A DNA stretch of 64,000 bases from Candidatus Woesebacteria bacterium (GCA_050115675.1 JASFQB010000005.1:22556-86555); one strand, 5' to 3'. Positions 18,650 to 36,178 are shown, counted from the stretch's first letter. Notes: generated by a model not told the origin, from the sequence alone. Numbers and translations: made by a program.

Positions 18650-18652
18650 TAG

Positions 18653-21308: not shown

Positions 21309-21343
21309 TAGCGCCTGTTTTAGTTAATCGAATATTAAGCTTA

Positions 21344-21352
21344 TGGTATAAT
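21344..21352 (+). promoter_or_regulatory. Extended -10 element TGgTATAAT
   Basis: 10 nt upstream of ATG 21362. The same ttatggtataat string precedes tmRNA. Confidence 0.4.
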
Positions 21353-21361
21353 TTTAATCAA

Positions 21362-22204
21362 ATGGGTATAAAGTGTTTTACAAGCGCGAGAAAGATTGTT
21401 GATAGGGCAGGTGTACTGCGATGTCCTTGTGATAATGATGGACAATCAGGTTATACGATTACCGAGATAAGCTTATTTTTGGGGATAAGTGGTCTTTTAA
21501 TACTGTTAGTGTTGATGGGTAGCGGTGCCACAATACAGGCTACACGCTTTACGGATAGCAGCAGATCTTTGCACGCTTTCATACAAAAACAGTACGACAA
21601 TATTTTAAATGGCGTTAACACTCGTAATGCCGATATAGCTTGTGATTCTGGCGTGATAGATTCGAGTCCGGCAAAAGGCGATGAAGTTGGCACTACAAAC
21701 TGCCTATTGATGGGTAGGTTGGTTGTATTGGATCAAGATAGTGTGGTCGCTACAGCGTATTCGATCATTGGCGTAGAGCCAGCAAATCCAGACTATAACC
21801 AGCCTGATGCAGAACTTATTCATGATTTTAATCCAATAATCGTCAGAGATATCGATACCGAGCAGTTTACTATTCCCTGGGGTGCAAGCGTTGTAGGCAG
21901 CAAACGTTCTAGTGATTCTACAAAAGTTAATGCCTTTGCTATGATTCGTAGCCCACGCTCTACGAGGGTACTTTTTTACACATATCAAGAACCTTTGACA
22001 AGCTATAATCTTGCAGAGCTAGTTAATCCTAACCTTGCAGAAGACGACAATAATTTTAGTTCGTCAACAAACACAAGCAATTTTTGTCTAAGAAGTGCGG
22101 ACACTTTTGCTGTAATGTCAAGAATCAAAATTGCGGGTGGGCAAGGCCAGGATGCAATTGGACTATCGTTTGACGCGACGACGGAGGATTGCAATGGCAA
22201 TTAA
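21362..22204 (+). CDS. Minor pilin-like protein (long leader)
   Basis: '...GQSG|YTITEISLFLGISGLLILLVL' prepilin-type cleavage motif with Glu+5. 280 aa. Confidence 0.6.
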   Translation: MGIKCFTSARKIVDRAGVLRCPCDNDGQSGYTITEISLFLGISGLLILLVLMGSGATIQATRFTDSSRSLHAFIQKQYDNILNGVNTRNADIACDSGVIDSSPAKGDEVGTTNCLLMGRLVVLDQDSVVATAYSIIGVEPANPDYNQPDAELIHDFNPIIVRDIDTEQFTIPWGASVVGSKRSSDSTKVNAFAMIRSPRSTRVLFYTYQEPLTSYNLAELVNPNLAEDDNNFSSSTNTSNFCLRSADTFAVMSRIKIAGGQGQDAIGLSFDATTEDCNGN

Positions 22205-22751
22205 AAGCCAAAGAGGTGATACGCTAGTTGAAGTTCTAATGGCTGTGGTGATTTTGAGTTTGGTTATTGTTGGTGCGATAACAATGATGTCACGCGGTCT
22301 TAGCGCAGCTCAGATTGCAGTAGAGCATACGCAGGTAAGACAAAGCATAAATGGTCAAACAGAAATGTTACGCTACCTACGTGACGCATATTTGTTAGAC
22401 AAAAATGGTTCTGCTGCGCAAGCTTGGGAGTCGTTATTTAGTGGATCTTCGTTATATGCCAACAATGTTCCTTCATCGTATGGTGGGGCTTGTGCGGTTA
22501 CTGCAAATAAAACTGGTTTTTATTTAGAGCAGTCTGGATCTAATGTTAATGTTATTGCGTTTGATTCTGCTAATAAGCCAACAACAGTAGCATTGCCTGG
22601 TCAGGGTTTATGGATAGAAGCCACACGTTCTGCATCAGGAATATCGCCAGCCTATGTTGATTTTCAGATAAGGGCTTGTTGGCAGGGTGTTGGTAGCTCA
22701 GCTGAGCAGCAAACGGTAACCGTGGAGAGATTGTATGATCCAGCACACTAA
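22194..22751 (+). CDS. Minor pilin-like protein
   Basis: ATG 22194 gives 'MAIKSQRG|DTLVEVLMAVVILSLVIVG' (Glu+5). Overlaps the upstream gene by 11 nt. The longer 22131 start is unlikely. Confidence 0.6.
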   Translation: MAIKSQRGDTLVEVLMAVVILSLVIVGAITMMSRGLSAAQIAVEHTQVRQSINGQTEMLRYLRDAYLLDKNGSAAQAWESLFSGSSLYANNVPSSYGGACAVTANKTGFYLEQSGSNVNVIAFDSANKPTTVALPGQGLWIEATRSASGISPAYVDFQIRACWQGVGSSAEQQTVTVERLYDPAH

Positions 22752-23370
22752 ATCTAATCAGTCAGGTTTTACTCTTGTGGAATTGACGTTAGCTATGGCG
22801 TTTGTGTCGTTTATTTTGTTGTTTATAGTTTTTGCTATGATAGAAATTATGGGTGATTACAACAAGGGGATTGTAGTCAAAGAGATTAATCAAACTGCGC
22901 GCACTATTGTTGAAGAAATGGGCAGGCTAAGTAGATCTACGGACGCATCTGCAATCAATACCTCGGCACAGGCCGAAGGAAGGCTTTGTTTTGGTAGTGT
23001 GAGTTATGCGTGGAATGTTCGTGGTAACGAGCTGGATAATAAATTTACAGACAACAGTCTTGTTGGCTTGGTCCGAGTGGAGGATCCAGCCGGTTCTTTG
23101 TGCGGATTAGTGTCTGGATCTTACCCTCAGATTGATCGCGCAAGTGCCATAGATTTAATAAGCGACCAAGTATGGGTGCAAAATTTAAATGCTCAGGTAA
23201 GCGGCAATCAAAAGCTTGTAGATATTGATTTAAAGCTGTCAACTGCGGGAGACAACAGGCCAACAGGAGTTGGTCCAAGCGGTTACATATGTGAAGGCGG
23301 AAAAATTGGTAACTTCTGTGCGGTAGCAGAGTTTAATACTACAGTTAGCACAAGAAACGGAGGGGAATGA
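22735..23370 (+). CDS. Minor pilin-like protein
   Basis: 'MIQHTKSNQSG|FTLVELTLAMAFVSFILL' canonical prepilin N-terminus. Confidence 0.7.
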   Translation: MIQHTKSNQSGFTLVELTLAMAFVSFILLFIVFAMIEIMGDYNKGIVVKEINQTARTIVEEMGRLSRSTDASAINTSAQAEGRLCFGSVSYAWNVRGNELDNKFTDNSLVGLVRVEDPAGSLCGLVSGSYPQIDRASAIDLISDQVWVQNLNAQVSGNQKLVDIDLKLSTAGDNRPTGVGPSGYICEGGKIGNFCAVAEFNTTVSTRNGGE

Positions 23371-24551
23371 TGAAGATTGCTAGGCGAAACATACAACCGA
23401 AAGAAGAAGGGTTTGTATCAATTTTTACAGTAATATTCTTTATGATGCTGGTCTCGGTGATTACCATTGGTTTTTTGCGCATCATGACGATAGAGCAACG
23501 TCAATCGCTTGATAACGATCTAACAGCAAGTGCGTTGGCCTCCGCAGAGTCTGGAATAGAAGATGCAAAAAGGGCAATATTAAAATACGCAAACATGCCC
23601 AATGGTGCCGAAAAAAATGCGCTAAGAAGTGCTTTAACTTCAAATGAATGTAATGCACTACTAGATAATGCAACAGCAAATAGTATTGGAATCAACGCAG
23701 ACGGCAGTATAACTGGCGATCCAGACCTTAATCAATATTACACATGCTTAAGCGTTAATCTATACTCGGCTGATTATTTGGGCGACTCGTCTGCGGGTGT
23801 AAGTGAATATGTACCACTTCGAACAGAAAGCGACGATCAGTTTGATCAAATTAAAATATCGTGGCATATGGTTAGCAACGCAATTGGCACGGATGGTGAT
23901 GGTCGCCCAAGCAACTATGCCTTGTCTACGGCCTTTCCAAAAGTGACAGGAGATGCGCAAAGCTGGGGTTCGCGTGGCTATCCTGCATATATGCGCGTGC
24001 AGCTTTACGGCTACCCCGAAGGATCTTTTACGCGCGATAATGTGAATGATCGTACACGTGCAGTATTTTTGGTACCAAGCGTAGTGGGAATAACAGAAGG
24101 TACAGCAATATCTACAACGGTGTCTGATCCGACTCCGCACGAATTCGACAATGATAAATCTGCAGTACAGGCTATACAGTGTAAAGATACTCCAGCGACC
24201 GTAAGTGAAGGGGAGTACGCCTGTACGGCCACAATATCGTTGCCCGATGACCCAACTTTAAGAGGCAATAATAATGAGTACTATCTACGCGTTACGCCTT
24301 TATATGGCGCTACTCACTATAAAATTCAGCTAATTGACAGTAGTAAAGCAGAAATTGTTAATTTTAGCGAGGTTCAGCCAATTGTTGATGTTACGGGTCG
24401 CGCCAGTGACGTTTATCGTAGAGTGCAGGCTAGAGTGCGTATGCAGTCCGTGGGAGATCTTCCAGAATACGCTGTTGAAAGTGCAGATGATATTTGTAAG
24501 AACATGCAGGTATCAGACGGTAGCTTTTATCAAGCAAATAGTTGCCCTTGA
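23367..24551 (+). CDS. PilX-like large minor pilin / tip-associated protein
   Basis: '...PKEEG|FVSIFTVIFFMMLVSVITIGFLRIMTIEQRQS' (PilX_N-like, no Glu+5). 394 aa. Last gene of the locus. Confidence 0.55.
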   Translation: MMKIARRNIQPKEEGFVSIFTVIFFMMLVSVITIGFLRIMTIEQRQSLDNDLTASALASAESGIEDAKRAILKYANMPNGAEKNALRSALTSNECNALLDNATANSIGINADGSITGDPDLNQYYTCLSVNLYSADYLGDSSAGVSEYVPLRTESDDQFDQIKISWHMVSNAIGTDGDGRPSNYALSTAFPKVTGDAQSWGSRGYPAYMRVQLYGYPEGSFTRDNVNDRTRAVFLVPSVVGITEGTAISTTVSDPTPHEFDNDKSAVQAIQCKDTPATVSEGEYACTATISLPDDPTLRGNNNEYYLRVTPLYGATHYKIQLIDSSKAEIVNFSEVQPIVDVTGRASDVYRRVQARVRMQSVGDLPEYAVESADDICKNMQVSDGSFYQANSCP

Positions 24552-24555
24552 TTTC

Positions 24556-25482
24556 TTACTCGGGCGATGAATGGAATCTCTCGTGAATCTCTTTTAGGTG
24601 AGGATCCGTAACATGAGTATACACCTGTGTTGTAGCAATATTGCTATGCCCTAACATAACTTGTACGCTGCGTATGTCAGCGCCGTTCATTAACAGCCCA
24701 GTAGCAAAAGAATGTCTCAGCGTGTGCGGAGATACCGTTTTTGTAATGCCTGCTAGCGAGGCATATCTAGAAACAATGCGCTGTATACTACGTGAAGTGA
24801 GGCGTCCGTAGTCGCCACTGTTGTCTACGTGCTCGGCACCGCCATATCTAATAAAAAGCGGTCTTAGGCTGTCTGTGCGCGCTGCCAAATAGCCATCCAC
24901 TAATAATGCTGCATCATCACTGATGAACACTGGTCGATCTTTCTGGCCTTTTCCGCGAATCCTAAACTCTTTTCTTTTAAGATTTATGCTGTCTTTGTTT
25001 AGGCTTACTAGCTCAGAAACGCGAAGTCCGCTTGAGTAGAGTAGCCCAATAATTGCTCGATCTCGCAAGCCTATTAATGTGTCTGCGCAGAGCGTAGAAA
25101 ATAATCTTTGCAGCTCATCTTCATTTAAAAAACTTACTTGTTTGCGTACGATTTTAGGTAGCTCTACCTTTTCTGGAGTAATTGACTCGATACCCCTTTT
25201 AGAGCAATAGCCTAAAAAACTGCGCAAAGCTATAAGATGGTATGCTTGTGTGATGGTTGATAACTCGTCGCCTTGATCGTTTTTGTATCTTGCTAGCCAT
25301 AGTCGCCATTTTCTAATTAGCTCGTCGTCAATTTTACATGCGTCAATATCACCAGCAAATTCAACGAGCCTATTTAAATAAAGGTGGTAGTTTTCTGATG
25401 TCTTTTGGGATCGATTTTTCTCGATCTCTAAGTATTCTAAAAAATCAATAATTAATTCAGAGATATACATAACCATAATCAT
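24556..25482 (-). CDS. Tyrosine recombinase XerC/XerD family
   Basis: 308 aa with an N-terminal SAM-like domain, 'R...HTLRHSFATGLLMNGADIRSVQVMLGHSNIATTQVYTHV' and the catalytic Tyr. Confidence 0.88.
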   Translation of the reverse strand: MIMVMYISELIIDFLEYLEIEKNRSQKTSENYHLYLNRLVEFAGDIDACKIDDELIRKWRLWLARYKNDQGDELSTITQAYHLIALRSFLGYCSKRGIESITPEKVELPKIVRKQVSFLNEDELQRLFSTLCADTLIGLRDRAIIGLLYSSGLRVSELVSLNKDSINLKRKEFRIRGKGQKDRPVFISDDAALLVDGYLAARTDSLRPLFIRYGGAEHVDNSGDYGRLTSRSIQRIVSRYASLAGITKTVSPHTLRHSFATGLLMNGADIRSVQVMLGHSNIATTQVYTHVTDPHLKEIHERFHSSPE

Positions 25483-25564
25483 TATACCAGCAAACCCTTA
25501 AGAACAAAAAAATTATTCAAAATTAACAGTAGTATAGGCATGGCAAATAGGCTACAATATACCT

Positions 25565-26347
25565 ATGACTATATTTGAAGCAATAACACTCGGACTAGTA
25601 CAGGGCATAACAGAATTTATTCCCGTTTCGAGTTCTGGACATCTTGTAATAGCCGAACACTTTTTAGGAATAGCACCTCCCTACGTTTTTAGTTCGTTAA
25701 TTAATCTTGGTACATTTTTGGCCCTGGTGATTTATTTTCGTAAAAAAATACTACAAATCTGTTGTGATATTTTTATTAAAGGCAACTATAGGCTTGCGCG
25801 AAACATTGTAATTTCTGCAATTCCTGTTGGTATAGCTGGTGTATTGTTGTCAGATTTATTTGAACAAATTCAAACACCACAAGTTGTAGCGATAATGCTG
25901 GTAGTTTTGGGGTTGTTGATGATAACTCTAGATCTTTTACCAAGGCTATCGAGTGTAAAAGATGCCGAACAATTAAGTGCAAAACGAGCTGGTTTCATAG
26001 GTGTCATGCAGGCAGGCGCGTTAATTCCAGGTGTGTCTAGGTCAGGGTCAACAATCGTAGCTGGCAGGTTGGCTGGATTGTCGTATGAGCAGGCTGCAGA
26101 GTACAGTTTTTTGCTTTCTATTCCTGTGATGCTTGGCGTGTTGTTAAAAGGACTTGCAAGCAGTGAGGGTATTTCATTTATACAAAACAACATTGTTTCA
26201 TTTACGGTGAGTGTAATTGTTGCATTCTTGTCTGGTATGTTTGCGGTTGGTTTTATGTTGCGTTATTTACAGCGTGGAAACCTAAAAATTTTTGGGTTAT
26301 ACAGAATAATTCTAGCGGCAGTGGTTTTACTAGCGCTGGCTTTTTAG
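25565..26347 (+). CDS. uppP: Undecaprenyl-diphosphate phosphatase
   Basis: 'GLVQGITEFIPVSSSGHL' and 'PGVSRSGSTI' BacA/UppP motifs. Confidence 0.9.
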   Translation: MTIFEAITLGLVQGITEFIPVSSSGHLVIAEHFLGIAPPYVFSSLINLGTFLALVIYFRKKILQICCDIFIKGNYRLARNIVISAIPVGIAGVLLSDLFEQIQTPQVVAIMLVVLGLLMITLDLLPRLSSVKDAEQLSAKRAGFIGVMQAGALIPGVSRSGSTIVAGRLAGLSYEQAAEYSFLLSIPVMLGVLLKGLASSEGISFIQNNIVSFTVSVIVAFLSGMFAVGFMLRYLQRGNLKIFGLYRIILAAVVLLALAF

Positions 26348-26410
26348 CTTAGCCCATTGATATAACCGTCAATAACATCTACAATGTTCATAAAATTTTA
26401 GGAGAAATAA

Positions 26411-27040
26411 ATGACCAAGCTACATCCAGCACTTAGCCCAATCAAATTTCAACGTACTTTTTGTATGATTAAGCCTGACGGCGTTATGCGTGGATTAGTG
26501 GGTGACATTATCCGCCGAATAGAAAAGTCTGGACTTAAAGTTGTTGCCTTAAAAATGGAGCGTGCCGACGAGGAACTTGTGCGCAATCATTATCCAATGA
26601 GCGATGAGGCATGGGTTTATCGCCTTGGCGAAAAAAGTCTGAGCGGTTTTGACAATCTAGATAATATTGATGCTTTAGAAATATTGGGCACAACTGACAG
26701 AGCGGCTTTGGGTAAAGAAGTGACAGAAAGCCTAGTTGCATATTTGACATCTGGTCCAGTTGTTTGCATGGTGGTTGAGGGTATTCAGGCAATTGACATG
26801 GTTCGTAAATTGGCAGGCCACACTTTGCCATTTAAAGCAGACGTTGGAACAATTCGCGGAGATTACTCGGTAGACAGCCCTGCAATTGCTAACGCAGAAA
26901 AACGTTCAATTCATAACTTATTCCACGCAAGCGAAAACGCCCAAGAAGCAGAAAACGAAATTACTTTGTGGTTTGGCAAAGATAAAACTCACAGCTACAT
27001 GCGTTCTGGCGAAGATGTAATGTACAGCAAGCATTACTAA
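26411..27040 (+). CDS. ndk: Nucleoside-diphosphate kinase (long form with insertions)
   Basis: 'RTFCMIKPDGVMRGLVGDIIRRIEKSGLKVVALKM', 'GTIRGDY', catalytic 'NLFHASE'. 209 aa versus roughly 140-150 in canonical forms. Confidence 0.85.
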   Translation: MTKLHPALSPIKFQRTFCMIKPDGVMRGLVGDIIRRIEKSGLKVVALKMERADEELVRNHYPMSDEAWVYRLGEKSLSGFDNLDNIDALEILGTTDRAALGKEVTESLVAYLTSGPVVCMVVEGIQAIDMVRKLAGHTLPFKADVGTIRGDYSVDSPAIANAEKRSIHNLFHASENAQEAENEITLWFGKDKTHSYMRSGEDVMYSKHY

Positions 27041-27057
27041 AAATAGTGTATAATAAT

Positions 27058-27087
27058 AGAGCGGTCTAAAGTCCGCTCTATATTTTT
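27058..27087 (+). terminator. Rho-independent terminator after ndk
   Basis: agagcgg/ccgctct stem followed by aTaTTTTT. Confidence 0.7.
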
Positions 27088-27164
27088 GCCTCGGTAGCTC
27101 AGCTGGATAGAGCACCTCCGTCCTAAGGAGGGTGCCGGGGGTTCGAATCCCTCCCGGGGTACCA
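27088..27164 (+). tRNA. tRNA-Arg (anticodon CCT)
   Basis: Hand-folded cloverleaf: acceptor gcctcgg/ccggggt, D arm gctc..gagc, anticodon stem cctcc/ggagg with loop gtCCTaa, T arm ggggg-ttcgaat-ccctc, encoded CCA. Confidence 0.85.
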
Positions 27165-28165
27165 TATTTCCCTGATCATCATTTTTGAGCTTGAACAGCT
27201 CGTTTAACTTCGGTGGTTCCACCGAAGTTTTGTTTGCAGAAAGTAAGTCGCCATAGTTTGGTGCACTGTTGAATAACAGGCCAAAGAAGTTGGCTTTTTG
27301 CACTGGATCAATCTGTTTTACGAGCAAATCTTCTAGATGCTGCAATTAATTACCGTTTCTGAGCTAACGAGCTTGATCTTATCAACCAATGCTTTCGCCT
27401 GCGCTCGCAGTGTGTTTATATGCGTTTCAATGCGCTGCTCTTCGTCTACGACTGATTGGTTTCGTTGTGTCCAGACGGTTTCCACGGCCGCTAGGAGCCC
27501 GTCGATTCGTGCCTCTTCGTATTTGACCCGGTGTACGAAATCGGCAATGGTCGTTTCAAAATCTTTTTTAGGCACGCGGAAGCAGTGGCCACGCTTGTTG
27601 TAGTGGTAGGCCGGGTAAAGTTTGCCCATCTTGCCGCGTGTAGAGCTGTCAAAGAGTGGTTTTTCGCACTCGGGACGCACAGACGATCTTATGGTATGAA
27701 AACTCGGCGTTCCGCGTACTTTTGGGAGTTGCGTAGCGCTCCTCAGTCGGCCTTTCGTACAGAAATATAGCCCCATCTTTCTCGCCGATCACGAGCTTGC
27801 CTTTATTGGCGGCATTGAATAGCTCGTAAGAAATTAGGCCAGCGAATTGCCCTCTAACAGCCTTGTTGTCTGTTTACTTTTCGCAAATAATGCCGGCGTA
27901 TATTGGATTTGCGATGTATCGCCAGAACGTTTTAATGTCAAGCTTCTTGCCGCCTCGTTTGCCAATAGCCTGAGTACGCTCCTGTGTACTCCTGAGCGTT
28001 TGCGTGCGTGACTTATAGCCAAGCTTATTTATCTCGTCTACGATTTGTCGGTCGTCTAAAGTCCTTCTGGCGCGTAACTCAAACATTTTGGTTATGAATT
28101 CGGATTCGGTGGGGCACGGTCGTAGCGCTAACTGTTCCCCATGCTGCGTATCTGTGCAGTTAAAG
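27165..28165 (-). pseudogene. Large serine recombinase remnant: catalytic N-domain missing, at least 3 frame disruptions
   Basis: Recombinase-domain piece 'EFITKMFELRARRTLDDRQIVDEINKLGYKS...FWRYIANPIYAGIICEK*' (28086-27874). A shifted piece 'LISYELFNAANKGKL'. A zinc-ribbon and coiled-coil piece 'CEKPLFDSSTRGKMGKLYPAYHYNKRGHCFRVPK...RIETHINTLRAQAKALVDKIK' (27776-27333). A further-shifted C-terminal piece (27345-27165) that runs into the tRNA. Confidence 0.7.
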
Positions 28166-28236
28166 CTTGTCGCTAAAAAATAGCAAGATATCCAAACAGG
28201 AATCCTCCGTAAGGGAGACTTAAAAGATTAGTATCT

Positions 28237-29835
28237 CTATCCAACCTCTGCCATCTCGACAGTCGCCACCCACCGGATGGTTTTCGCGGCTTCGCCGGTG
28301 ACAGTGATTGCGAGTCTGTTGTTGGTGCTGTCGGCGGTGACAGCGACGGTCCAGGTGGTGGCTCCGGCGTCGCACATGGTGGTGGTGCCGGTGCCGGTAG
28401 GGGTGCCGAGGAGTCTGCAGTTGCCGGTAGCGTCGCGGGTGATGGCGGCGTGGATGGGTGCCCATGCGGCGGCGGTGCCGGAGACGTCGGTGCGGTGAGC
28501 GGCGACGCGGATGGTGCATGCCATGGTGCGGGTTGCTGCGATGGTGATGTAGCCGCTGGTGGCGCCGTCGGCGGATAGCTCGGTGCCGGTGGCGTCGGTG
28601 GTGGTGATGCGGAGGACATCGACGACGTGTCGGGCGTCACCGGCGGTGGTGAAGTGCCCGTTCGAGGTGGCGTGTTGGCCGTATCTGTCTGCTTTTGCGT
28701 AGCTGCCGAGTGCGGTCGATGAGTCGCCGGACGCGGAGGCAGAGTTTCCGAGTGCGGTTGCGTAGTCGGCTGATGCGGTGGCCGATCTGCCTACGGCGGT
28801 CGCGGAGTCGCTGGCGGAGGCTGCGTATCCGACGGCAATCGAGGAGGAGCCGGATGCGGAGGCCGACCGGCCGACGGCGGTCGCGACAGTGCCGGACGCG
28901 GAGGCTGATTGTCCGACGGCAGTCGCATAGGAGCCAGCGGAGGCCGACCGGCCGACGGCTGTGGCGTAGTTGCCGGACGCGGAGGCTGATTGTCCGACGG
29001 CAGTCGCATAGGAGCCAGCGGAGGCCGACCGGCCGAGGGCGGTCGCGGATGTATTTATCGCAGAAGACAAAACCCCCACCGCCACAGAATTATTCCCACT
29101 AGCCACCGACGAAACCCCCAATGCCAAAGCGTCCGTCCCGGTAGCCGAACCGCCCGCACCAGGCGGCAAAGCCCAAGTACTATCGCCGCGCAAAAACGTA
29201 GTTCCGTCTGCCGTGCCCGTTCCAAGCCTGGCGGTATTCATCGTGCCAGATGTAATGTCCGCCGTACTGTGACCGTGATCTCCTGCGGCGGCCTGTTGCG
29301 CGCCCGTGCCCAAAGTACGAAGCGACGGCGTAGCCGTTGTGCCGTCTACCGAACCAGCTGCCATGTTGGCAGAAGTTAAACCCGTAAGAGCATCCGAACC
29401 TCCTGGCGCATGACTAGACGCGTGGGCCGTGGGAGTCCTGGCGTCCGAAAGTCGTGCATCATCGCCCTGGGCTGCACTGCCAGACGTAGTGCCATAAACA
29501 ACCGCCAATGTTACATCCGAATTCAGCGCTCCGCCACCCGTCAAACCAGTGCCAGCGACAACTTGTCTGGTGGACTGCACTGCGCCAGTTATGCGACTGT
29601 CATCTCCGGCGGCAACCGTGCCGCTTGTACTGCCCACGTTTTTAGTTGCAGAATCGCCCAAATCTGTAACATCCGAAGCTGTATGATGATGAATTACGTC
29701 TGCCTTAGAAGAGAGTGCACTAGATTTTAGAGAGCCGTCAGAATTATGCGTAACCAGTAAAAAATCGTTAAGGATATCACCCCAAAGACCGTCATCAGAA
29801 CCGGAAACTGGAAGCCTGGACACTCTGCCCCCCAA
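28237..29835 (-). CDS. Tail-fibre / trimeric-adhesin-like protein, compositionally chimeric (GC-rich body)
   Basis: 532-aa ORF; the likely true start is GTG 29823, giving 'MSRLPVSGSDDGLWGDILNDFLLVTHNSDGSLK'. Fibre motifs 'AAGDDSRITGA', 'AQGDDARLSDA', 'AAGDHGHSTADITSG', 'FLRGDSTWALP'. YadA-head/Hep_Hag-like repeats 'SASASGNYATAVGRSASAGSYATAVGQ'. High GC3. Confidence 0.75.
   Translation of the reverse strand: MGGRVSRLPVSGSDDGLWGDILNDFLLVTHNSDGSLKSSALSSKADVIHHHTASDVTDLGDSATKNVGSTSGTVAAGDDSRITGAVQSTRQVVAGTGLTGGGALNSDVTLAVVYGTTSGSAAQGDDARLSDARTPTAHASSHAPGGSDALTGLTSANMAAGSVDGTTATPSLRTLGTGAQQAAAGDHGHSTADITSGTMNTARLGTGTADGTTFLRGDSTWALPPGAGGSATGTDALALGVSSVASGNNSVAVGVLSSAINTSATALGRSASAGSYATAVGQSASASGNYATAVGRSASAGSYATAVGQSASASGTVATAVGRSASASGSSSIAVGYAASASDSATAVGRSATASADYATALGNSASASGDSSTALGSYAKADRYGQHATSNGHFTTAGDARHVVDVLRITTTDATGTELSADGATSGYITIAATRTMACTIRVAAHRTDVSGTAAAWAPIHAAITRDATGNCRLLGTPTGTGTTTMCDAGATTWTVAVTADSTNNRLAITVTGEAAKTIRWVATVEMAEVG
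28891..29036. repeat. Intragenic tandem duplication, 81-bp period (27 codons)
   Basis: 65-nt string gccggacgcggaggctgattgtccgacggcagtcgcataggagccagcggaggccgaccggccga occurs identically at 28891-28955 and 28972-29036. Confidence 0.9.
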
Positions 29836-29969
29836 TTAGTGTTTTATGTTACTTTTGATTATAACTACATCCCTCACAAAACAAAACCCCTGCAGGGTCG
29901 AGCGTTGCAAAGTAGTCGTCTAGAGTTTCGGCGCGGCGGATCTGTACAACTTTTTGTTATGATAAATAT

Positions 29970-30299
29970 ATGGATTTTGATTTACTGCAAAAAAGGGCTT
30001 TAGAAATTCGAGACAAATACGACAGGCTAAACCAAGAAAAGCGTGGGGTTGTATGGAACGAGCAACAGCTTATGGCTGGTTTTGTTGGAGATGTCGGAGA
30101 TCTCTCAAAAATCGTTATGGCAAAGCACGGGCTGCGTGCTATGGACAACGTTGACGAAAGGCTTGCTCACGAGCTTAGCGACTGTCTTTGGTCTGTGTTG
30201 GTTATGGCTGGTAAATATAATATTAATTTGTCAGAGGAATTTATTAAAACCATGGACGAATTAGACGAGCGAATCGATTTTGATATGTCTAAAACTTAA
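29970..30299 (+). CDS. MazG-like nucleotide pyrophosphohydrolase (small all-alpha NTP-PPase)
   Basis: 109 aa; 'AGFVGDVGDLSKIV' and 'LAHELSDCLWSVLVMAGKYNINLSEEFIKTMDEL' resemble the EExxE/D helical MazG-type core. Confidence 0.6.
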   Translation: MDFDLLQKRALEIRDKYDRLNQEKRGVVWNEQQLMAGFVGDVGDLSKIVMAKHGLRAMDNVDERLAHELSDCLWSVLVMAGKYNINLSEEFIKTMDELDERIDFDMSKT

Positions 30300-30325
30300 C
30301 AAGAAGTACTGTTTGGTATTATCAT

Positions 30326-30820
30326 TTGTTCATGGGCTCTATGAAGAAACTTCCGCCAGACACCCTTCGAAGGCACAAGGGGGTGAGCTTTACGGGCATA
30401 GCAACGACTTTTTGGTGTCACAATGGCAGAGGACGACTTTTGCTATCTAGACGTAGCATGGGTGCGCGTGATGAATGTGGAACGTGGGAGCCTGGCACTG
30501 GAGGTCTCAGACACGGCCAGTCGTTAGTAGACAATGTTCGCAGAGAACTAAAAGAAGAATACAATACAGATCCGTTGACAATCGATTTCATTGGCTATCG
30601 CGATGTGTTCAGAAATCTCAATAATGGAACACTAACACACTGGTTGGCAATGGATTTTGCAGTTATTGTTGATCCTAGCAAGGTTCGCATAAATGAGCCA
30701 GAAAAAATCGATGCTTTGGGCTGGTTCGCGCTTGATAAACTTCCTAGTCCGCTTCATTCGCAATTTGCGTACTTCTTAATGTTGCACGGCGACAAGCTAA
30801 GGGCGCACATGAAAGTTTAA
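30326..30820 (+). CDS. NUDIX-family hydrolase (divergent Nudix box)
   Basis: 'GGLRHGQSLVDNVRRELKEEYN' approximates GX5EX7REUXEEXGU. 164 aa. The start is ambiguous (TTG 30326, ATG 30332 or 30341). Confidence 0.55.
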   Translation: MFMGSMKKLPPDTLRRHKGVSFTGIATTFWCHNGRGRLLLSRRSMGARDECGTWEPGTGGLRHGQSLVDNVRRELKEEYNTDPLTIDFIGYRDVFRNLNNGTLTHWLAMDFAVIVDPSKVRINEPEKIDALGWFALDKLPSPLHSQFAYFLMLHGDKLRAHMKV

Positions 30821-30823
30821 AAA

Positions 30824-30860
30824 ATGCCTCGCCTTAAACACTGGTATTAGGGCGAGGCAT
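30824..30860 (+). terminator. Hairpin terminator
   Basis: 10-bp perfect stem atgcctcgcc/ggcgaggcat, with a weak U-tract. Confidence 0.55.
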
Positions 30861-30920
30861 TTGCCACTTTAAAACTGATGACATACAATTAAAGCATAAA
30901 GATTAATCTTGGTTTTATAA

Positions 30921-31454
30921 ATGACAAAATATTTTGATGGCCAACATGATGACGAAGAAGTGCTTTTTACGTTTAGGCGTCACCCAATTGCAATGCGCAA
31001 AGGTTTTTATCTACTCTTAGTGCCATTTGTAATAGCCTCTCTTCCTACATTATTTTGGCCAGAAAATTTAAATAATTTATACGTCGCCTTTGGTGGATTG
31101 GCTTTGGGTATAGTGCTGTTTTTTTATCATTGGATGGGTTGGTACTTTAGTGTTTTTATTGTTACGGATCAGCGAATGCGTCAGGTGACTCAAAAAGGGT
31201 TTTTTAACAGAAGTGTCATTGATGTAGGTGTATCAAAGATCCAAAATATTAGCTATAATGTACCTGGATTCACTGCTTCGATTTTTGGCTTTGGGAACCT
31301 AGTGATACAAACCTACGTTGGTGATTTGTATCTTGATAAAATCGAACATCCAACAAAAACTTTTGATAATTTGTTAAAAGTTTTAAAAGATTATGGTGGC
31401 AGCGAAGTTAATGTAGGTAATTATGAAGAAGCTATTCAACAAGATCAGTCGTAA
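30921..31454 (+). CDS. Membrane protein with bacterial PH (bPH_2/YdbS-like) domain
   Basis: 'EEVLFTFRRHPIAMRK', two TM helices, then a 'VFIVTDQRMRQV' PH-like core. Confidence 0.5.
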   Translation: MTKYFDGQHDDEEVLFTFRRHPIAMRKGFYLLLVPFVIASLPTLFWPENLNNLYVAFGGLALGIVLFFYHWMGWYFSVFIVTDQRMRQVTQKGFFNRSVIDVGVSKIQNISYNVPGFTASIFGFGNLVIQTYVGDLYLDKIEHPTKTFDNLLKVLKDYGGSEVNVGNYEEAIQQDQS

Positions 31455-32490
31455 TCACAGGCAGCAGCCTCAACAGCCAGGAAGCTCGTCTTTAAGGATT
31501 ACAAACGAAACCGTGGCAGAGCATCGCGAGCGCGTTTTAGCTGGTGGGCGTAAGTTTAAATATCCCTTGCAGTACACAAAGCATCGCGTTGTAGTTGTAA
31601 CGGCAATTATTGTCTTTGCAATTGCAATTCTTGCGTCTGCAATAGGGGGGTGGCAGCTATATTCTGTGCAAAACGCAAGCAAGTTTATGCTTCGTGTTAC
31701 TCAAGTACTGCCAGTGCCAGTGGCCGAAGTTGATGGGGCTCAGGTTAGGTATAGCGACTACCTGTTGAATCTTCGTAGCTCGTTGCATTATTTATCTACA
31801 AAAGAGGCCGTAAACTTTTCTTCTGATGATGGTAAGCGCCAGCTTGACTATCAAAAGCGTCTTGCATTAAACAAGGCGATAGAAAACGCATATATTCAAA
31901 AAATAGCCGAGCAGCAGGGTGTCAATGTATCTCAAGACGAATTAGATACATACATAGACAAAGAAATAACAAACAATCCTTACGGGGTCACAAAAGAGAT
32001 GTATCAGCAAGTTGTTGGCGATTATTATGATTGGACGTTTGATGATTATAAGAACTCTGTGCGCGAGCAATTATTGCGCAAAAAGTTAGCTGCAAAAATT
32101 GATGTAGAGGGGCGTCAGCAAATTCAAGCCGCATGGGACGCTCTAAATGCAACTGCAGATTTTGCTGAAACTGCAAAAGGACAGTCAGAAGATGTTGCCA
32201 GTGCCGTTAACGGTGGCGACGTGGGATACGTAAGTATGAATGTTGACGATCCAAGCGGTTTGATCGTAGCCGCAGAAGGTCTTGAGCCTGGTCAATTCTC
32301 TGGTGTTATAGAAGGCGTAGATGGATTTTATATTATAAAAGTTTACGACAAGCGCGAAAAAGACATACACTTCGCAAAGATATTTGTGTCATATAAAACT
32401 TTAAACCAGCAAATAGCACAGCTAAAAGTTGACGGCAAAGTTAAAGAGTATATTTCAGTCCCAGAGACCGTCCAATCTACTAATCAGTAG
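31423..32490 (+). CDS. Membrane-anchored parvulin-type peptidyl-prolyl isomerase (PrsA/SurA-like)
   Basis: N-terminal TM helix, chaperone-like helical region, and C-terminal PpiC motif 'GGDVGYVS....G.FSGVIEGVDGFYIIKV'. Confidence 0.7.
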   Translation: MKKLFNKISRNHRQQPQQPGSSSLRITNETVAEHRERVLAGGRKFKYPLQYTKHRVVVVTAIIVFAIAILASAIGGWQLYSVQNASKFMLRVTQVLPVPVAEVDGAQVRYSDYLLNLRSSLHYLSTKEAVNFSSDDGKRQLDYQKRLALNKAIENAYIQKIAEQQGVNVSQDELDTYIDKEITNNPYGVTKEMYQQVVGDYYDWTFDDYKNSVREQLLRKKLAAKIDVEGRQQIQAAWDALNATADFAETAKGQSEDVASAVNGGDVGYVSMNVDDPSGLIVAAEGLEPGQFSGVIEGVDGFYIIKVYDKREKDIHFAKIFVSYKTLNQQIAQLKVDGKVKEYISVPETVQSTNQ

Positions 32491-32506
32491 AAAATGATAT
32501 AAATAC

Positions 32507-32531
32507 AAAAAGCGACGTAAAGTCGCTTTTT
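32507..32531. terminator. Bidirectional terminator
   Basis: aaaaagcgac/gtcgcttttt stem with A/T runs on both sides, between the PPIase gene (+) and tRNA-Asp (-). Confidence 0.7.
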
Positions 32532-32547
32532 CGAAAGTATAATTACC

Positions 32548-32625
32548 TGGCGGGCCCGACCGGATTCGAACCGGCGATCTCCTCCGTGACAGGGAGGCGT
32601 GATAGGCCAACTTCACTACGAGCCC
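32548..32625 (-). tRNA. tRNA-Asp (anticodon GTC)
   Basis: Reverse complement folds as a cloverleaf: gggctcg acceptor, anticodon stem cctcc/ggagg with loop ctGTCac, T loop ttcgaat, CCA encoded. Confidence 0.85.
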
Positions 32626-32710
32626 AAGACTAGCTTATTTTAGCAATTTTTTTAATAGATTACAAGGTGCGATAAATATTTTTTAGAGGTGGCGTAAATA
32701 GGGGGTTATT

Positions 32711-32719
32711 TGCTATAAT
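32711..32719 (+). promoter_or_regulatory. Extended -10 element TGcTATAAT upstream of the tRNA-Thr/Gly pair
   Basis: TGCTATAAT lies 15 nt upstream of the tRNA-Thr 5' end. Confidence 0.45.
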
Positions 32720-32733
32720 TACTGCTGTTATGT

Positions 32734-32809
32734 GCCGATGTAGCTCAGCTGGTAGAGCAGTGCTTTCGTAAAGCAAAGGTCGGCGGTTCAAGTCCGCCCA
32801 TCGGCTCCA
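32734..32809 (+). tRNA. tRNA-Thr (anticodon CGT)
   Basis: Acceptor gccgatg/catcggc, anticodon loop ttCGTaa, T arm ggcgg-ttcaagt-ccgcc, CCA encoded. Confidence 0.85.
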
Positions 32810-32812
32810 TAT

Positions 32813-32886
32813 GCGAGATTAGTATAATGGTAGTACGCTTGCTTCCCAAGCAAGAGGCGCGAGTTCGATTCTCGCATTTCGCACCA
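32813..32886 (+). tRNA. tRNA-Gly (anticodon CCC)
   Basis: Acceptor gcgagat/atttcgc, anticodon stem cttgc/gcaag with loop ttCCCaa, T arm gcgag-ttcgatt-ctcgc, CCA encoded. Lies 3 nt after tRNA-Thr. Confidence 0.85.
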
Positions 32887-32947
32887 TTTTTGTAGCCCAA
32901 AGCGGCATGTTGGTTTATACTTATATTCAGATAGATAAAAATACCTT

Positions 32948-33319
32948 ATGTTTAAGAAGAAAGAACTTGTAATTTTTTTTAGAGACAGACTTGCTATGTT
33001 GCTTATGGCTGGATTCTTTTTGAGCGTATTGGCTCTAATAACAATGACCTTTTTTAGTGTTCATATAAGCGATGTGCAATTGCCAAATCGCTACTCTGAT
33101 TATGGTTTCACAAATCTTTACAGGGGTAAATGGTATTCGTTAACATTATTTGCGCTTTTTGGCCTTGTGATTTTTTCTATAAACGGATATCTGTCTGTTA
33201 AGCTGCGCGAAGAAAGGCGAGCTTTGTCCCTGAGTATATTAAGTGTTAGCTTAGTAATAATGACATTCACAATAGTGATAGCTGCTAAAGTGTTTGGTTT
33301 GGCGGCGTTTTCTTTATGA
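32948..33319 (+). CDS. Small polytopic membrane protein coupled to the GT2 synthase
   Basis: 123 aa with 3-4 TM helices. The stop overlaps the next start (ATGA). Confidence 0.5.
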   Translation: MFKKKELVIFFRDRLAMLLMAGFFLSVLALITMTFFSVHISDVQLPNRYSDYGFTNLYRGKWYSLTLFALFGLVIFSINGYLSVKLREERRALSLSILSVSLVIMTFTIVIAAKVFGLAAFSL

Positions 33320-34941
33320 CGGACCTAGAAATTCCAGTTGGCAAGCGTACAGCAATGTACAGATTTTTTGAGATACTGCCAGCGGTTCTTAGTTACTCAA
33401 TATTGCTGTTGCCAATAATTTTAAGCATAATAAATCCGTTTGTAGCATCTATCTTTATCTTGGCGTATGTTATTATGTGGTTTGTAAAAGCTATTGCAAT
33501 GGCATTTAGAACAGTTCAAGGCTACAACTGCATGCAGGATGCACGCAAGGTCGATTGGCGAAAGCGCCTCGACGATCTTGAGGATGTTGATCTGGCCTTA
33601 CATCATCATCACCAAATGAAAGATCCAAAATCTTGGCATGAAAACAATCATTATAAAATTCTATGCTCAATTGCAGCTAGTCGCGAGCAATATTACAAGC
33701 CAAGCGAGGTTTACAATGCTGTGATTGTGCCTGTATACAAAGAGCCAGAAGATGTGGTCGTGCCTACTATTGATTCGATTGTCGATAGTCATTACGATTC
33801 AAGAAAACACACAATATTAATATTTGCTTACGAAGAGCGAGTAGGCAGGCCAGCTGAAGACTTAGCCAATGGTATGTTAAACAAGTATAAAGATAAATTT
33901 TATCACATGGCTATCACCAAACACCCCGACGGCATCCCTAACGAGGTTGTAGGTAAGGGCGGAAACATTACGTTTGCAGCGCAATGGCTAAAGGTATTCC
34001 TTGAAGAAAAAGGCATTGATCCAGATAAGGTTATCGTAACTACGTTAGACGCGGACAATCGCCCAGATCCGTCATTTTTGCCATACCTGACTTACGAGTA
34101 CATAATCGACCCCAATCACAGACATCGCGCCTACCAACCCGTGTCTTTATATATGAATAACATTTGGGATGTTCCTGCTCCAATGCGTGTTTTGGCAACA
34201 GGTAACTCATTTTGGACTATAATTAATGCTCAACGTCCTCACATGCTGCGGAACTTCTCGTCGCACGCACAAGGAATGGCGTCTCTTATCGATACGGATT
34301 TTTGGAGTGTTCGCACAATTGTTGAAGACGGACACCAATACTGGAGAAGCTATTTTAGATTTGATGGCGACTACGAAGTAACGCCAATTTATGTACCAAT
34401 TTACCAAGATGCGGTGTTAGATGTAACATACTGGAAGACTATAAAAGCACAATTTGTTCAACTGCGAAGGTGGGCGTACGGAGCCTCTGACGTTGCCTAT
34501 GTTGCCGATAAAGGTTTTAGGCGAGATAGCAAAATTCCGTTTTTCTCATTTTTTGGACGCTTTTTGCGATTACTCGAAAGTCATGTAAGTTGGGCTACGG
34601 CCTCAGTTATTATTGCTCTTGGCGCCTGGGCTCCATTGTTTATAAATAGTAACGCCAGTCATAGTATTGTTGCACATGAGCTGCCGCAAATAGCCAGTCA
34701 GCTACAGCAAATTGCCATGATAGGTCTATTTATAACAGTATTTTTGGCATTTAAAATGCTACCACCGCGTCCGGCACGATATAAAAGACATCGCAACATA
34801 TTAATGCTTGCGCAGTGGGCGATAATGCCCATTACTAGCATTGCCTATGGTTCGGCAGCCGCATTTTATTCGCAAACACGTTTGATGCTTGGAAAATACT
34901 TAGACAAGTTTGACGTAACAGTTAAAACTGTTAAAAAATAG
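33316..34941 (+). CDS. Membrane-embedded processive family-2 glycosyltransferase (cellulose/chitin-synthase-like)
   Basis: 'VIVPVYKEPEDVV', 'TLDADNRP' (DxD) and 'QLRRWAYG' (QxxRW), with TM helices at both ends. Confidence 0.75.
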   Translation: MTDLEIPVGKRTAMYRFFEILPAVLSYSILLLPIILSIINPFVASIFILAYVIMWFVKAIAMAFRTVQGYNCMQDARKVDWRKRLDDLEDVDLALHHHHQMKDPKSWHENNHYKILCSIAASREQYYKPSEVYNAVIVPVYKEPEDVVVPTIDSIVDSHYDSRKHTILIFAYEERVGRPAEDLANGMLNKYKDKFYHMAITKHPDGIPNEVVGKGGNITFAAQWLKVFLEEKGIDPDKVIVTTLDADNRPDPSFLPYLTYEYIIDPNHRHRAYQPVSLYMNNIWDVPAPMRVLATGNSFWTIINAQRPHMLRNFSSHAQGMASLIDTDFWSVRTIVEDGHQYWRSYFRFDGDYEVTPIYVPIYQDAVLDVTYWKTIKAQFVQLRRWAYGASDVAYVADKGFRRDSKIPFFSFFGRFLRLLESHVSWATASVIIALGAWAPLFINSNASHSIVAHELPQIASQLQQIAMIGLFITVFLAFKMLPPRPARYKRHRNILMLAQWAIMPITSIAYGSAAAFYSQTRLMLGKYLDKFDVTVKTVKK

Positions 34942-34954
34942 ATAAATATCAAAT

Positions 34955-35407
34955 TTACTTGAGACGTCTCTTAATTGTGCAAGCGTCTACTGCTGTATTT
35001 GTATAATTGGTTAGATATTTAATAAAGGCTGCTGAATCAAAATTTTTTAACACATCAAGACAAATATCTTTTATCTCGTTCGTAGTTACGATACATTTAC
35101 TGTTGGCGGTTTGTATTAATTTTTGCTCAACCGTCTCACTAAGCCAAAAAGCGTCATCAGTGTTAGCGCGATGATCGCAGGCTTTTGCTATACTCAAAAA
35201 AAGAGTAGTTTTAGAAAAAGGTAAAGTTTTTTTAAAGCTTGCGTCTGTAGCAACGCGCAAAAAACTTGAAGCCTCGATTAGCTCGTAGGTCGTAAATTCT
35301 TTGCTGCATGCTTGGCAGCGATGCCTGCGCCAAGTTGAATTAAGTTTTTTTGTGTTTCTGGAGTTATAAATTGTTGTCTTCTTGTTAAGGCAAAATGGAC
35401 ATATCAT
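34955..35407 (-). CDS. nrdR: Transcriptional repressor NrdR (zinc ribbon + ATP-cone)
   Basis: 'MICPFCLNKKTTIYNSR...RRHRCQACSKEFTTYE' followed by an ATP-cone-length C-terminus. Confidence 0.8.
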   Translation of the reverse strand: MICPFCLNKKTTIYNSRNTKKLNSTWRRHRCQACSKEFTTYELIEASSFLRVATDASFKKTLPFSKTTLFLSIAKACDHRANTDDAFWLSETVEQKLIQTANSKCIVTTNEIKDICLDVLKNFDSAAFIKYLTNYTNTAVDACTIKRRLK

Positions 35408-35517
35408 GTCTATATATTGTCATTGCGCTATAAAAAAGTCCAGTGGAAAAGTTAAAAAAATGAGTAAAACTAAAGCACTCCCCATAAGGGGAGTGCTGAT
35501 GAAAATCATTACTTGTA

Positions 35518-35664
35518 TTATCCGCGAGAGGCAACGTGTCGTTGTGGTTGTTTAACTTTTCGCGACTGCTTGTCTACTATTGTGCGGCTATCATCCGTAT
35601 GCTCGTAAAATATTTTAAATTTTTCAAGCTCAGATGTCTTTTTGGGTTGGTTGTTACTATTCAT
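35518..35664 (-). CDS. Possible 48-aa small basic protein (below the ORF-track cutoff)
   Basis: ATG..TAA frame 'MNSNNQPKKTSELEKFKIFYEHTDDSRTIVDKQSRKVKQPQRHVASRG', followed on its strand by the hairpin gcactcccc/ggggagtgc (35475-35496) and a T-rich tract. No SD. Confidence 0.25.
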   Translation of the reverse strand: MNSNNQPKKTSELEKFKIFYEHTDDSRTIVDKQSRKVKQPQRHVASRG

Positions 35665-35770
35665 AACATTTTTATATTAGCATAAACTTTATAAAAAGGC
35701 AATAGCGTGGCATTTATGTGTAAGTGTAGTATTATTTAACAGGTTAGTTTTGATCTAGAAGGGAAGGGTC

Positions 35771-35962
35771 ATGGCTTTAGTTGCTAGGACTGTTAATGCC
35801 AGGCAAGTGTTAGCAGGGTGGTATATAAAAGATTGTGGCAAATTTCAAAGAGTTGTGGCTGTTTCAAGAACAGATCGTGGATACATTTCTATTTGCCTAG
35901 AGAACAATGTAGTTTACGAGTATAGCCCCACCAGACACGTAGTGGCCTATGTTGAGAGCTAA
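35771..35962 (+). CDS. Hypothetical small protein (63 aa)
   Basis: ORF preceded by GAAGGGAAGGG 3 nt upstream of the ATG. No family recognised. Confidence 0.4.
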   Translation: MALVARTVNARQVLAGWYIKDCGKFQRVVAVSRTDRGYISICLENNVVYEYSPTRHVVAYVES

Positions 35963-36141
35963 CAAGCAAATGGGTACATGGCAATTGTCGGACAGATCGT
36001 CATGTACCCTATACCATAGATGGTTTAAATCATTAGACATAAACGAAGACTTTATACTATGAATGATATATTTTTGTAAAAAATGCCCAATATTTTATGT
36101 GGAAAACTTTTTGCCAATTGTTGATAAGTTTTTGCCAAAGC

Positions 36142-36174
36142 AAAAACCCCACAAGTCATGTCTGTGAGGTTTTT
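36142..36174. terminator. Hairpin terminator downstream of tRNA-Val
   Basis: aaaaacc(c)caca / tgtg(a)ggttttt with A/T runs on both sides, directly 3' of the minus-strand tRNA. Confidence 0.55.
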
Positions 36175-36178
36175 ACCT

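Follow-up and report, generated by a model that had tools for sequence, protein, structure and literature searches.

A probable decayed genomic island with a large serine recombinase pseudogene and an intact mosaic fibre gene at a Saccharimonadales tRNA-Arg(CCT) gene

The question raised by this locus is what kind of DNA begins where a tRNA-Arg(CCT) gene ends, and how a ruined integrase gene and an open fibre gene came to lie side by side in it. The locus is part of a 64-kb stretch of chromosome (JASFQB010000005.1, 22556-86555), here called the window and numbered from its first nucleotide, which has 43.7% GC and carries an rRNA operon, tmRNA, RNase P and type IV pilus genes. The window proteins are nearest to those of metagenome-assembled Saccharimonadales, members of the candidate phyla radiation (CPR); the best match (82% identity) is given by a nucleoside-diphosphate-kinase-like (NDK) gene at 26411-27040. 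An original prediction, made from the sequence alone, described an old prophage or integrative element at 27088-29950 which had lost its mobility and kept its fibre gene. The comparisons reported here point with good confidence to a decayed, immobile genomic island, from 27165 to approximately 30,870, in a variable slot downstream of the tRNA gene of a Saccharimonadales chromosome.

Directly beyond the tRNA gene the minus strand, read from 28168 down to 27165, holds the C-terminal two thirds of a large serine recombinase (LSR) gene. Sixty relatives of this LSR were found, most of them of 560-580 aa with a Resolvase domain (PF00239), and an intact relative of 573 aa, P0121, whose gene lies on contig L060, was used as the reference for mapping lesions. 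The stitched translation of the remnant is 80% identical to P0121 over 98% of the stitched length (E 9e-187), and at the DNA level the P0121 gene and the remnant are 85-89% identical. Pfam recognised the Recombinase domain (PF07508) in the stitched translation at 26.8 bits (gathering cut-off, 21.1 bits), the domain being interrupted by a TAA codon. The match to the integrase family PHROG_95 was confined to profile positions 256-479 of 651 (E 8.5e-13). P0121 has its Resolvase domain at residues 7-110 and its Recombinase domain at 198-301, with a weak zinc-ribbon match at 338-373. By both tblastn and nucleotide alignment, homology to P0121 begins at about window position 28168, equivalent to codon 181-184. 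Codons 1-180 are gone, the Resolvase domain is entirely absent and none of the remnant pieces gave a Pfam match to it. The break at about 28168 is approximately 70 nt from the stop codon of the fibre gene (28237-28239).

The surviving pieces form three segments in two frames (-2, -3 and -2; Table 1). In the first of these, TAA at 27874-27876 stands where the relative has a Trp codon. The stretch beyond this codon, described in the original prediction as a shifted linker, shares the frame of the Recombinase domain, from which the TAA parts it. The zinc ribbon is not intact in the remnant: the frameshift falls at the first Cys, another Cys has been changed (YHC to YHY) and codons 453-494 are deleted; PF13408 was not detected in the remnant by Pfam. 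Residues 495-566 of P0121 align by tblastn with 27345-27130 (83% identity, frame -2). As in the intact relatives, the open frame runs antisense into the tRNA gene, whose antisense strand supplies the last codons and the stop codon. Judged by collinear homology to full-length members, the remnant is an LSR pseudogene by descent, and not a functional integrase. The original prediction had correctly foreseen foreign DNA starting at the 3' end of the tRNA gene, pieces of one LSR on the minus strand, the missing catalytic domain and the break close to the end of the fibre gene; its count of at least four frames was too high. The 50% GC which it gave for a sample of the recombinase was also right, and only the reading of that value as intermediate, through amelioration, has to be given up. 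The remnant has 47.7% GC overall, and since intact genes of the LSR family have 46-51%, a value of about 48-50% is native to the family and is no sign of amelioration.

The same sequence is found in a 230-kb JGI contig (sample 3300042731). Two Logan contigs of SRR11713588, L064 and L063, are 100% identical to the window over 16411-28919 and 29007-40299, respectively. L064 runs from host genes through the tRNA gene and the LSR remnant to 28919, and L063 begins at 29007, takes in the 5' half of the fibre gene and continues into host genes. Every LSR lesion was reproduced by this second assembler. The two assemblies possibly share reads and so are independent in assembler and not in sample; their agreement rules out assembler artefacts, not all error.

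The left end of the insert is sharply defined, the first element-derived base being 27165 and the boundary therefore 27164/27165. The same junction, identical to the base, is found in L060, L065 and L067, where the tRNA ends in GTACCA and the element starts TAT(T/C)(T/G)CC, followed by a conserved hairpin. The sequence GGTACCATA occurs exactly once in the window. It is also carried by L061, without an adjoining tRNA gene, where it may be attP or a secondary site. In the intact relatives with a visible chromosomal flank the integrase always converges on tRNA-Arg, and the isoacceptors differ (TCG in L060, CCG in L065, TCT in L067 and CCT in the window). These alignments show an LSR clade which targets the extreme 3' end of tRNA-Arg genes, with four isoacceptors represented, and tRNA-Arg(CCT) at 27088-27164 is the attB-side target of the element. 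The hairpin with its T-run at 27206-27229 is kept in L060, L061, L065, L067 and the window; it may be a replacement terminator supplied to the tRNA gene by the element, or may be conserved merely as coding sequence.

The extent of the insert was taken from a comparison set of 56 genome and 80 metagenome loci of related Saccharimonadales (136), both flanking genes being present in 95. The conserved order in these 95 loci is Xer, (UppP), NDK, tRNA-Arg and a bPH_2 gene, the last being the homologue of 30921-31454. The comparison located the empty site, in that the gap from NDK to bPH_2 has a median of 292 bp in the 95 related loci and is 3,881 bp in the window. Relatives of the LSR, the fibre, the MazG-like open reading frame (ORF) and the Nudix gene were found in this interval in none of the 136 related loci. 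The arrangement is that of a genomic island, with an insert present here and an empty site in the relatives. Because the related loci lack the MazG-like and Nudix genes between the flanking genes, both can be assigned to the insert, which would then run from 27165 to approximately 30,862-30,890, a length of about 3.7 kb. This is some 0.9 kb further, by synteny, than the end at 29950 first proposed. The relatives have a TATAAT-type box shortly upstream of the orthologous bPH_2 start. Where other genes occupy the slot in the relatives, they encode membrane proteins, or are a radical-SAM cluster accompanied by an inverted tRNA gene (L001), or a different Nudix gene (L071). The slot between tRNA-Arg and the bPH_2 gene is a hot spot for gene gain.

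The kind of element to which the integrase had belonged was approached through four intact relatives placed in contigs, namely P0121 (L060), P0122 (L061/L062), P0127 (L065/L066) and P0123 (L067). The upstream flank of P0121 in L060 is only about 2.5 kb long, too short to type the element. In L061/L062, L065/L066 and L067 a 58-aa ORF and a Replic_Relax gene (PF13814) lie just upstream of the LSR gene. A large TraG/VirD4-like coupling protein is encoded in L061/L062 and L067, ie in two of the three element types. All three readable element types contain RadC or HTH genes and varying cargo: some have metabolic genes (Nudix, Ham1 and CutA1), and another has GmrSD, HEPN, PIN and restriction-modification genes. 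In the readable relatives (62-80% identity) the 10 kb or so upstream of the LSR gene contained no gene for a capsid, portal, terminase or tail, and a pattern-based scan of IMG/VR with P0121 gave no relative. On gene content, the intact elements, with their compact Replic_Relax, 58-aa ORF and LSR modules and a cargo of defence or nucleotide-sanitising genes, are candidate mobilisable elements. Because the readable relatives are non-phage, and the clade was unmatched in the IMG/VR scan, the ancestor of the remnant was more likely an integrative element of the mobilisable or conjugative type than a prophage. Relaxase-type and coupling-protein genes are absent from the island in the window, and this membership is proposed for the ancestor only. 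Canonical MOB relaxases and conjugative elements have been reported to be rare in Patescibacteria (PMC12102498). Full-text searching of the literature turned up no description of this LSR clade.

The fibre gene next to the remnant is intact, as the original prediction had stated. The ORF at 28237-29835 is open for 532 codons, and alignment with the product of 2035-2763 and with P0096 (both described below) makes GTG at 29823 the likely start. This frame was open in one of 20,000 composition-preserving block shuffles, and the other five frames contain 8-23 stops; the ORF is open beyond chance. Its product matches YadA_head (E 3.9e-20, eight repeat hits), the minor tail protein family PHROG_8780 (E 4.6e-22) and PHROG_21962. 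The GC content at third codon positions (GC3) rises along the gene, from 0.33 over codons 1-66 through 0.52 up to codon ~261 (0.47 with both parts taken as one) to 0.79 beyond codon ~262, with 0.85 near the end; in host genes it is 0.28-0.41. Placing one change point, at codon 262 (window ~29049), raised the log-likelihood by 29 units, and the high GC ends within a few bases of the stop codon. The fibre gene is thus a mosaic of at least two compositional origins. The Logan contig ends at 28919 and 29007 fall at the 81-nt tandem repeats next to the change point, and because that assembly breaks inside the repeats their copy number is uncertain. A run of GGGGGG at 29828-29833, resembling a Shine-Dalgarno sequence, lies ahead of the GTG, and an orphan hairpin (29885-29899) lies upstream of the gene. 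The TATAAT at 29858-29863 was not called by a two-hexamer promoter scan; together with the hairpin past the stop codon it would be compatible with expression of the fibre. The JGI gene call covers 28237-29070 only, ie 277 GC-rich codons of the 532, so that the N-terminal module and the mosaic structure are hidden in the public annotation.

Three disabling lesions are found in the 1 kb of the neighbouring integrase and none in the 1.6 kb of the fibre gene, where about five would be expected at the neutral rate of the integrase. This contrast argues for selection on the fibre gene or for its later arrival, three events being a thin basis for either. Retention of the fibre for function is plausible, and arrival after the death of the integrase is equally possible.

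In sequence and modelled fold the fibre is made up of phage fibre (receptor-binding) modules. The GC3-rich C-terminal module corresponds to residues ~99-337 of a stand-alone family of 326-345-aa proteins (48-62% identity), which are encoded, with a tape-measure gene, in siphovirus-like contigs of 53-55% GC (L057-L059). An AlphaFold (AF2) model of residues 256-532 (pLDDT 86.7) has two domains. The modelled beta-roll superimposes on the BoaA head with a root-mean-square deviation of 1.9-2.4 Å (TMt 0.68-0.72, 33-37% identity over about 135 residues), and fibre-like proteins of uncultured Caudovirales in BFVD match the whole modelled module (TMq 0.6-0.79). In the N-terminal module, 55-61% identity to minor tail proteins in 148 Gordonia phage records is seen over residues 44-139; in phage Belphegor the matching minor tail gene is the last tail gene ahead of the lysis genes. 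The host signal in these matches is weak, the cultured-phage database being heavily biased to Gordonia phages. Over residues 5-37 there is 64% identity to the product of window 2035-2763. Whole-protein, knob-only and cluster searches revealed no donor of the GC3-rich module above 67% identity, the best knob relatives being at 64-67%, and the pattern-based scan of IMG/VR with the fibre gave only relatives of 28-39% identity. No anchor family was found by Pfam and no obvious signal peptide by inspection of the sequence. The gene is an orphan between the integrase pseudogene and the MazG-like ORF, with no virion gene module around it. It probably still gives rise to a trimeric binding protein.

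Two other fibre-like genes share its N-terminus. At 2035-2763 on the plus strand, in host-like surroundings, is a second orphan fibre-like gene of the window, which encodes 242 aa beginning MARLPQPG..WGDILNEFLL and matches about 25 PHROG families, approximately half of them tail or tail-fibre; an exact-sequence look-up found no record of this gene. Directly downstream (2764-4641, plus strand) is a gene for a 625-aa protein with an N-terminal membrane or signal segment, which to the eye looks like a family-5 glycoside hydrolase. P0096 (L156/L157), a protein of 534 aa, has nearly the same N-terminus as the fibre (MARLPVPGSDTGQWGDILNTFL). Its gene sits between grpE and dnaK in a genome of 55% GC, among unknown genes and without phage genes, and fibre-like proteins of the P0096 type are found elsewhere, then, in cellular contexts.

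The features of the insert and its borders are collected in Table 1.

Table 1. Coordinates of the features of the insert and its borders in the window (LSR, large serine recombinase).
Feature	Position	Strand	Basis
tRNA-Arg(CCT), intact, CCA encoded	27088-27164	+	ARAGORN; Rfam tRNA 57.8 bits; same place in related loci
Left junction (attL core region), GGTACCA/TA (GTACCA/TA)	27158-27166	+	Same junction in L060, L065, L067
LSR pseudogene segment 3, C-terminal tail, codons ~495-560 of 573	27165-27345	-	tblastn
10-bp hairpin and T-run reading away from tRNA, within LSR 3' coding end	27206-27229	+	Terminator-like scan
124-nt deletion, codons 453-494, coiled-coil region; frame -3 back to -2	27333-27344	-	Nucleotide alignment to L060 LSR
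LSR pseudogene segment 2, zinc-ribbon and coiled-coil, codons 343-452	27348-27680	-	tblastn, P0121 344-452, 93% identity, frame -3
+1 frameshift, one extra base at first zinc-ribbon Cys	27681	-	Nucleotide alignment to L060 LSR
LSR pseudogene segment 1, Recombinase (PF07508) domain and linker, codons ~181-341	27682-28168	-	Pfam; tblastn 78% identity, frame -2
AT-rich spacer with terminator-like hairpin (28204-28218) just past fibre stop; no LSR similarity	28169-28236	-	
Orphan fibre gene, 528 aa from GTG 29823 (alternative TTG 29835)	28237-29823	-	ORF list; YadA_head, PHROG_8780
GC3-rich C-terminal module, codons ~262-532, predicted YadA-like left-handed beta-roll head and beta-sandwich knob	28240-29048	-	GC3, AF2 model
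81-nt (27-codon) tandem copies, two, 93% identical, in YadA-like repeats next to change point	28856-29017	-	Repeat search
N-terminal module, GC3 0.33-0.52; N-terminus RLPxxG..WGDILNxFL, phage-tail-repeat-like motifs	29049-29823	-	
TATAAT, perfect, ~35 nt upstream of GTG; putative promoter	29858-29863	-	Sequence reading
109-aa ORF, weakly MazG-like	29970-30299	+	Pfam MazG 16.7 bits, below cut-off 22
Nudix hydrolase gene, 164 aa	30326-30820	+	Pfam NUDIX E 1.6e-12; PHROG_1198
16-bp inverted repeat directly 3' of Nudix stop; last feature assignable to insert	30822-30862	+	Repeat search
Promoter-like TTGCCA-17-TACAAT of bPH_2 gene (30921-31454); right flank starts here or just before	30861-30889	+	Promoter scan

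The history which we propose for the island begins with the entry of at least one element by LSR integration, as the established mechanism of the large serine integrases would have it. The LSR would have acted on an attP situated at the 3' end of the LSR gene and on the very 3' tip of the tRNA gene as its partner, and a crossover in or beside GTACCA/TA would have left the tRNA intact and the integrase gene convergent with it. The element, like those seen in the relatives, would have been mobilisable or conjugative-like and not a prophage. In the decay that followed, a deletion took the first 180 codons of the integrase together with all that had stood upstream of its gene, and the remaining 1 kb gained the nonsense codon, the +1 frameshift and the 124-nt deletion. 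Because no attR is left, the block is fixed in place. The survivors are three intact genes, those for the mosaic fibre, whose module joint at codon ~262 adjoins the 81-nt tandem repeats, for the weakly MazG-like protein and for the Nudix hydrolase. The slot being a hot spot, these three may have come as cargo of the same element or by another insertion, whether older or later. Of the original prediction, the integrated element with its mobility lost was sustained and the prophage was not, the relatives being non-phage.

A prophage remnant, with an LSR that had served a temperate phage as integrase and a fibre that is the last survivor of its structural genes, is unlikely. It would account for the matches of the fibre to phage minor-tail and tail-fibre families and to phage fibre structures, and for the homology of the C-terminal module to proteins of siphovirus-like contigs with a tape-measure gene; LSRs are, moreover, common phage integrases. 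However, the readable flanks of the relatives, approximately 10 kb each, hold Replic_Relax and defence or metabolic cargo and no structural gene, two of the element types have a coupling protein, the IMG/VR scan gave no relative of P0121 and there is no further phage gene in the island. An artefact, ie a chimeric metagenome assembly of the GC-rich fibre gene, or LSR lesions that are sequencing or assembly errors, is very improbable. The Logan gap at 28920-29006, inside the 81-nt repeats and near the GC3 change point at ~29049, might be read as a false join, as might the fact that the JGI gene caller gave only 277 aa of the ORF. Both Logan contigs, however, link the GC-rich fibre gene to ordinary host flanks with complete identity to the window, the protein alignment to homologues is continuous across 28920-29006, and a break is expected of a de Bruijn assembler at 93%-identical repeats. 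As for the lesions, they were reproduced by the second assembler, and neither the 540-nt truncation nor the 124-nt deletion is of a type that sequencing error produces.

The explanation by separate events has to be taken more seriously, and we put its chances at a little short of even. The fibre cassette, perhaps with the MazG-like and Nudix genes, would on this account never have been cargo of the LSR element; the block would already have stood downstream of the tRNA gene when the LSR element inserted itself between the two, or a later recombination of the fibre would have deleted the 5' part of the integrase. The fibre block does have signals of its own (the hairpin at 28204-28218, the TATAAT and the orphan hairpin upstream), the GC3 of 0.79 in its 3' 0.8 kb is unlike the rest of the island or the LSR elements, and the sampled intact elements have no related gene. 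Variability of the slot fits as well, as does the expectation that LSR integration places the newest element beside the tRNA gene, with an older block distal to it. What speaks against separate events is that no repeats or second recombinase mark another insertion, and that cargo is highly variable in LSR elements, Nudix-type genes being present in two of the three element types.

Several observations weigh against a single decayed island with the borders given here. No attR could be recognised: GGTACCATA does not recur, nothing matches the putative P-arm of L061, and a search for direct and inverted repeats over 26900-31200 brought up no copy of the tRNA end. The right boundary is set only by synteny and the promoter of the next host gene. 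Part of the block may be lineage-specific host DNA and not mobile-element DNA, because 30 of the 95 related loci hold more than 700 bp of unrelated genes in the same slot. Even the nearest relative that has an empty site reaches no more than about 80% identity in the flanking proteins, too distant for the timing and order of events to be reconstructed. Because neither the fibre nor the MazG-like ORF nor this Nudix gene has a homologue in the sampled intact LSR elements, adjacency is the only tie of these genes to the LSR element. The lack of a signal peptide argues against a simple surface-adhesin role for the fibre.

A more specific role for the fibre would be that of a domesticated phage receptor-binding protein, with which the episymbiont recognises the cell surface of the actinobacterium, probably of high GC, on which it lives. 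The GC3-rich head-plus-knob module would then have been taken from a phage infecting that host. Saccharibacteria are found paired with actinobacteria, as with Ca. Mycosynbacter amalyticus on Gordonia (PMC11880426). Hints in this direction are the GC3 of 0.79-0.85 in a genome of 0.28-0.41, the actinophage-like minor-tail motifs, the second fibre-like gene at 2035-2763, with its neighbour that looks like a glycoside hydrolase gene, and the chromosomal P0096. Against it stand the missing signal peptide, knob relatives no closer than 64-67% and the Gordonia bias of the phage database, and we regard the proposal as quite doubtful.

Other observations concern the tRNA site, the slot and its neighbours. 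In L060 an extra partial copy of a tRNA 3' end, about 26 nt long, lies between the intact LSR gene and the complete tRNA-Arg(TCG), within 4184-4310; it is about 95 nt from the real 3' end, and the element abuts the partial copy. A serine recombinase is not expected to duplicate its target, and for this reason the copy points to a second event, or to a piece of tRNA that travelled with the element. L061 and L067 each carry a second LSR gene, and L065 and L067 adjoin tRNA-Arg genes. In L001, the closest genome relative, a block of 4.5 kb (10624-15157) contains a radical-SAM gene and two unknown genes, and tRNA-Arg(CCT) is inverted and 3.3 kb from NDK, a rearrangement at the same hot spot. Unrelated Nudix genes recur after tRNA-Arg or inside LSR elements (L071 9411-9986, L061 13442-13969 and L065 5053-5529), and this site seems often to receive genes for nucleotide pyrophosphatases as cargo. 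That the Nudix gene is ancestral to the slot was considered and rejected, the gene after tRNA-Arg in L071 sharing only the Nudix box. A defence-system reading of the MazG-like and Nudix genes was likewise dropped, with zero PADLOC hits, and pattern-based IMG/VR scans with these two gave nothing. The tyrosine recombinase at 24556-25482 was discarded as the island integrase; it is found in the same position, at 62-74% identity, in nearly all related loci and is an Xer-type housekeeping gene. A chromosomal paralogue of the coupling protein of the elements, at 48914-51013 (29% identity over about 750 aa), is all that came up when the window was searched for remains of the rest of the element, and is in line with the many stand-alone type IV coupling protein genes reported in Patescibacteria (PMC12102498).

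Set beside known systems, the intact relatives of the remnant share with the recombinases of phiC31, Bxb1, TP901-1, A118, SCCmec Ccr and Tn5397 TndX the order Resolvase, Recombinase, zinc ribbon and coiled coil. As with large serine integrases in general, the integrase gene lies at the end of the element beside the att site, and there are no long direct repeats, which is what the established 2-bp crossover predicts. The copy in the window differs from them in being a pseudogene without its catalytic domain, and its clade in targeting the 3' ends of tRNA-Arg genes. The LSRs that have been studied well insert for the most part into protein-coding genes, and it is the tyrosine integrases that typically use tRNA genes. 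Insertion at the 3' end of a tRNA gene, a dead integrase, erosion by deletion and a few intact cargo genes are likewise features of tRNA-linked islands and grounded prophages. The difference is that the recombinase here is a serine and not a tyrosine enzyme, and the host one of the Saccharimonadales with their reduced genomes; because of the serine enzyme, no duplication of the tRNA 3' end is found in the window. With integrative mobilisable and conjugative elements and the type IV secretion systems of Patescibacteria, the LSR relatives have in common their linkage to Replic_Relax and VirD4/TraG-like genes. In the island of the window this machinery is gone, and Replic_Relax as a relaxase is only putative.

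The fibre, for its part, shares YadA_head repeats and, in the model, a BoaA-like beta-roll with the trimeric autotransporter adhesins (YadA, BoaA, BpaC and AtaA). Unlike these, it has no membrane-anchor beta-barrel or extended signal peptide by Pfam, and it ends in a knob; it is not a trimeric autotransporter. Module fold and sequence are shared with phage YadA-like head-plus-knob fibres (BFVD; L057-L059) and with actinophage minor tail proteins, from which the fibre of the window differs in standing alone and in joining two modules of differing base composition.

As a class, an island with a dead integrase and few surviving genes at a tRNA gene is routine, and the one described here from a CPR genome belongs to a known kind; the intact mosaic fibre could be the only part beyond routine. 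The Saccharimonadales LSR clade, travelling with Replic_Relax and coupling-protein genes, offers a lead on DNA exchange in these bacteria. The slot between tRNA-Arg and bPH_2 is a hot spot of gene gain in otherwise strongly reduced genomes, and the mosaic fibre is a testable candidate for a phage-derived binding protein that has been kept by an episymbiont.

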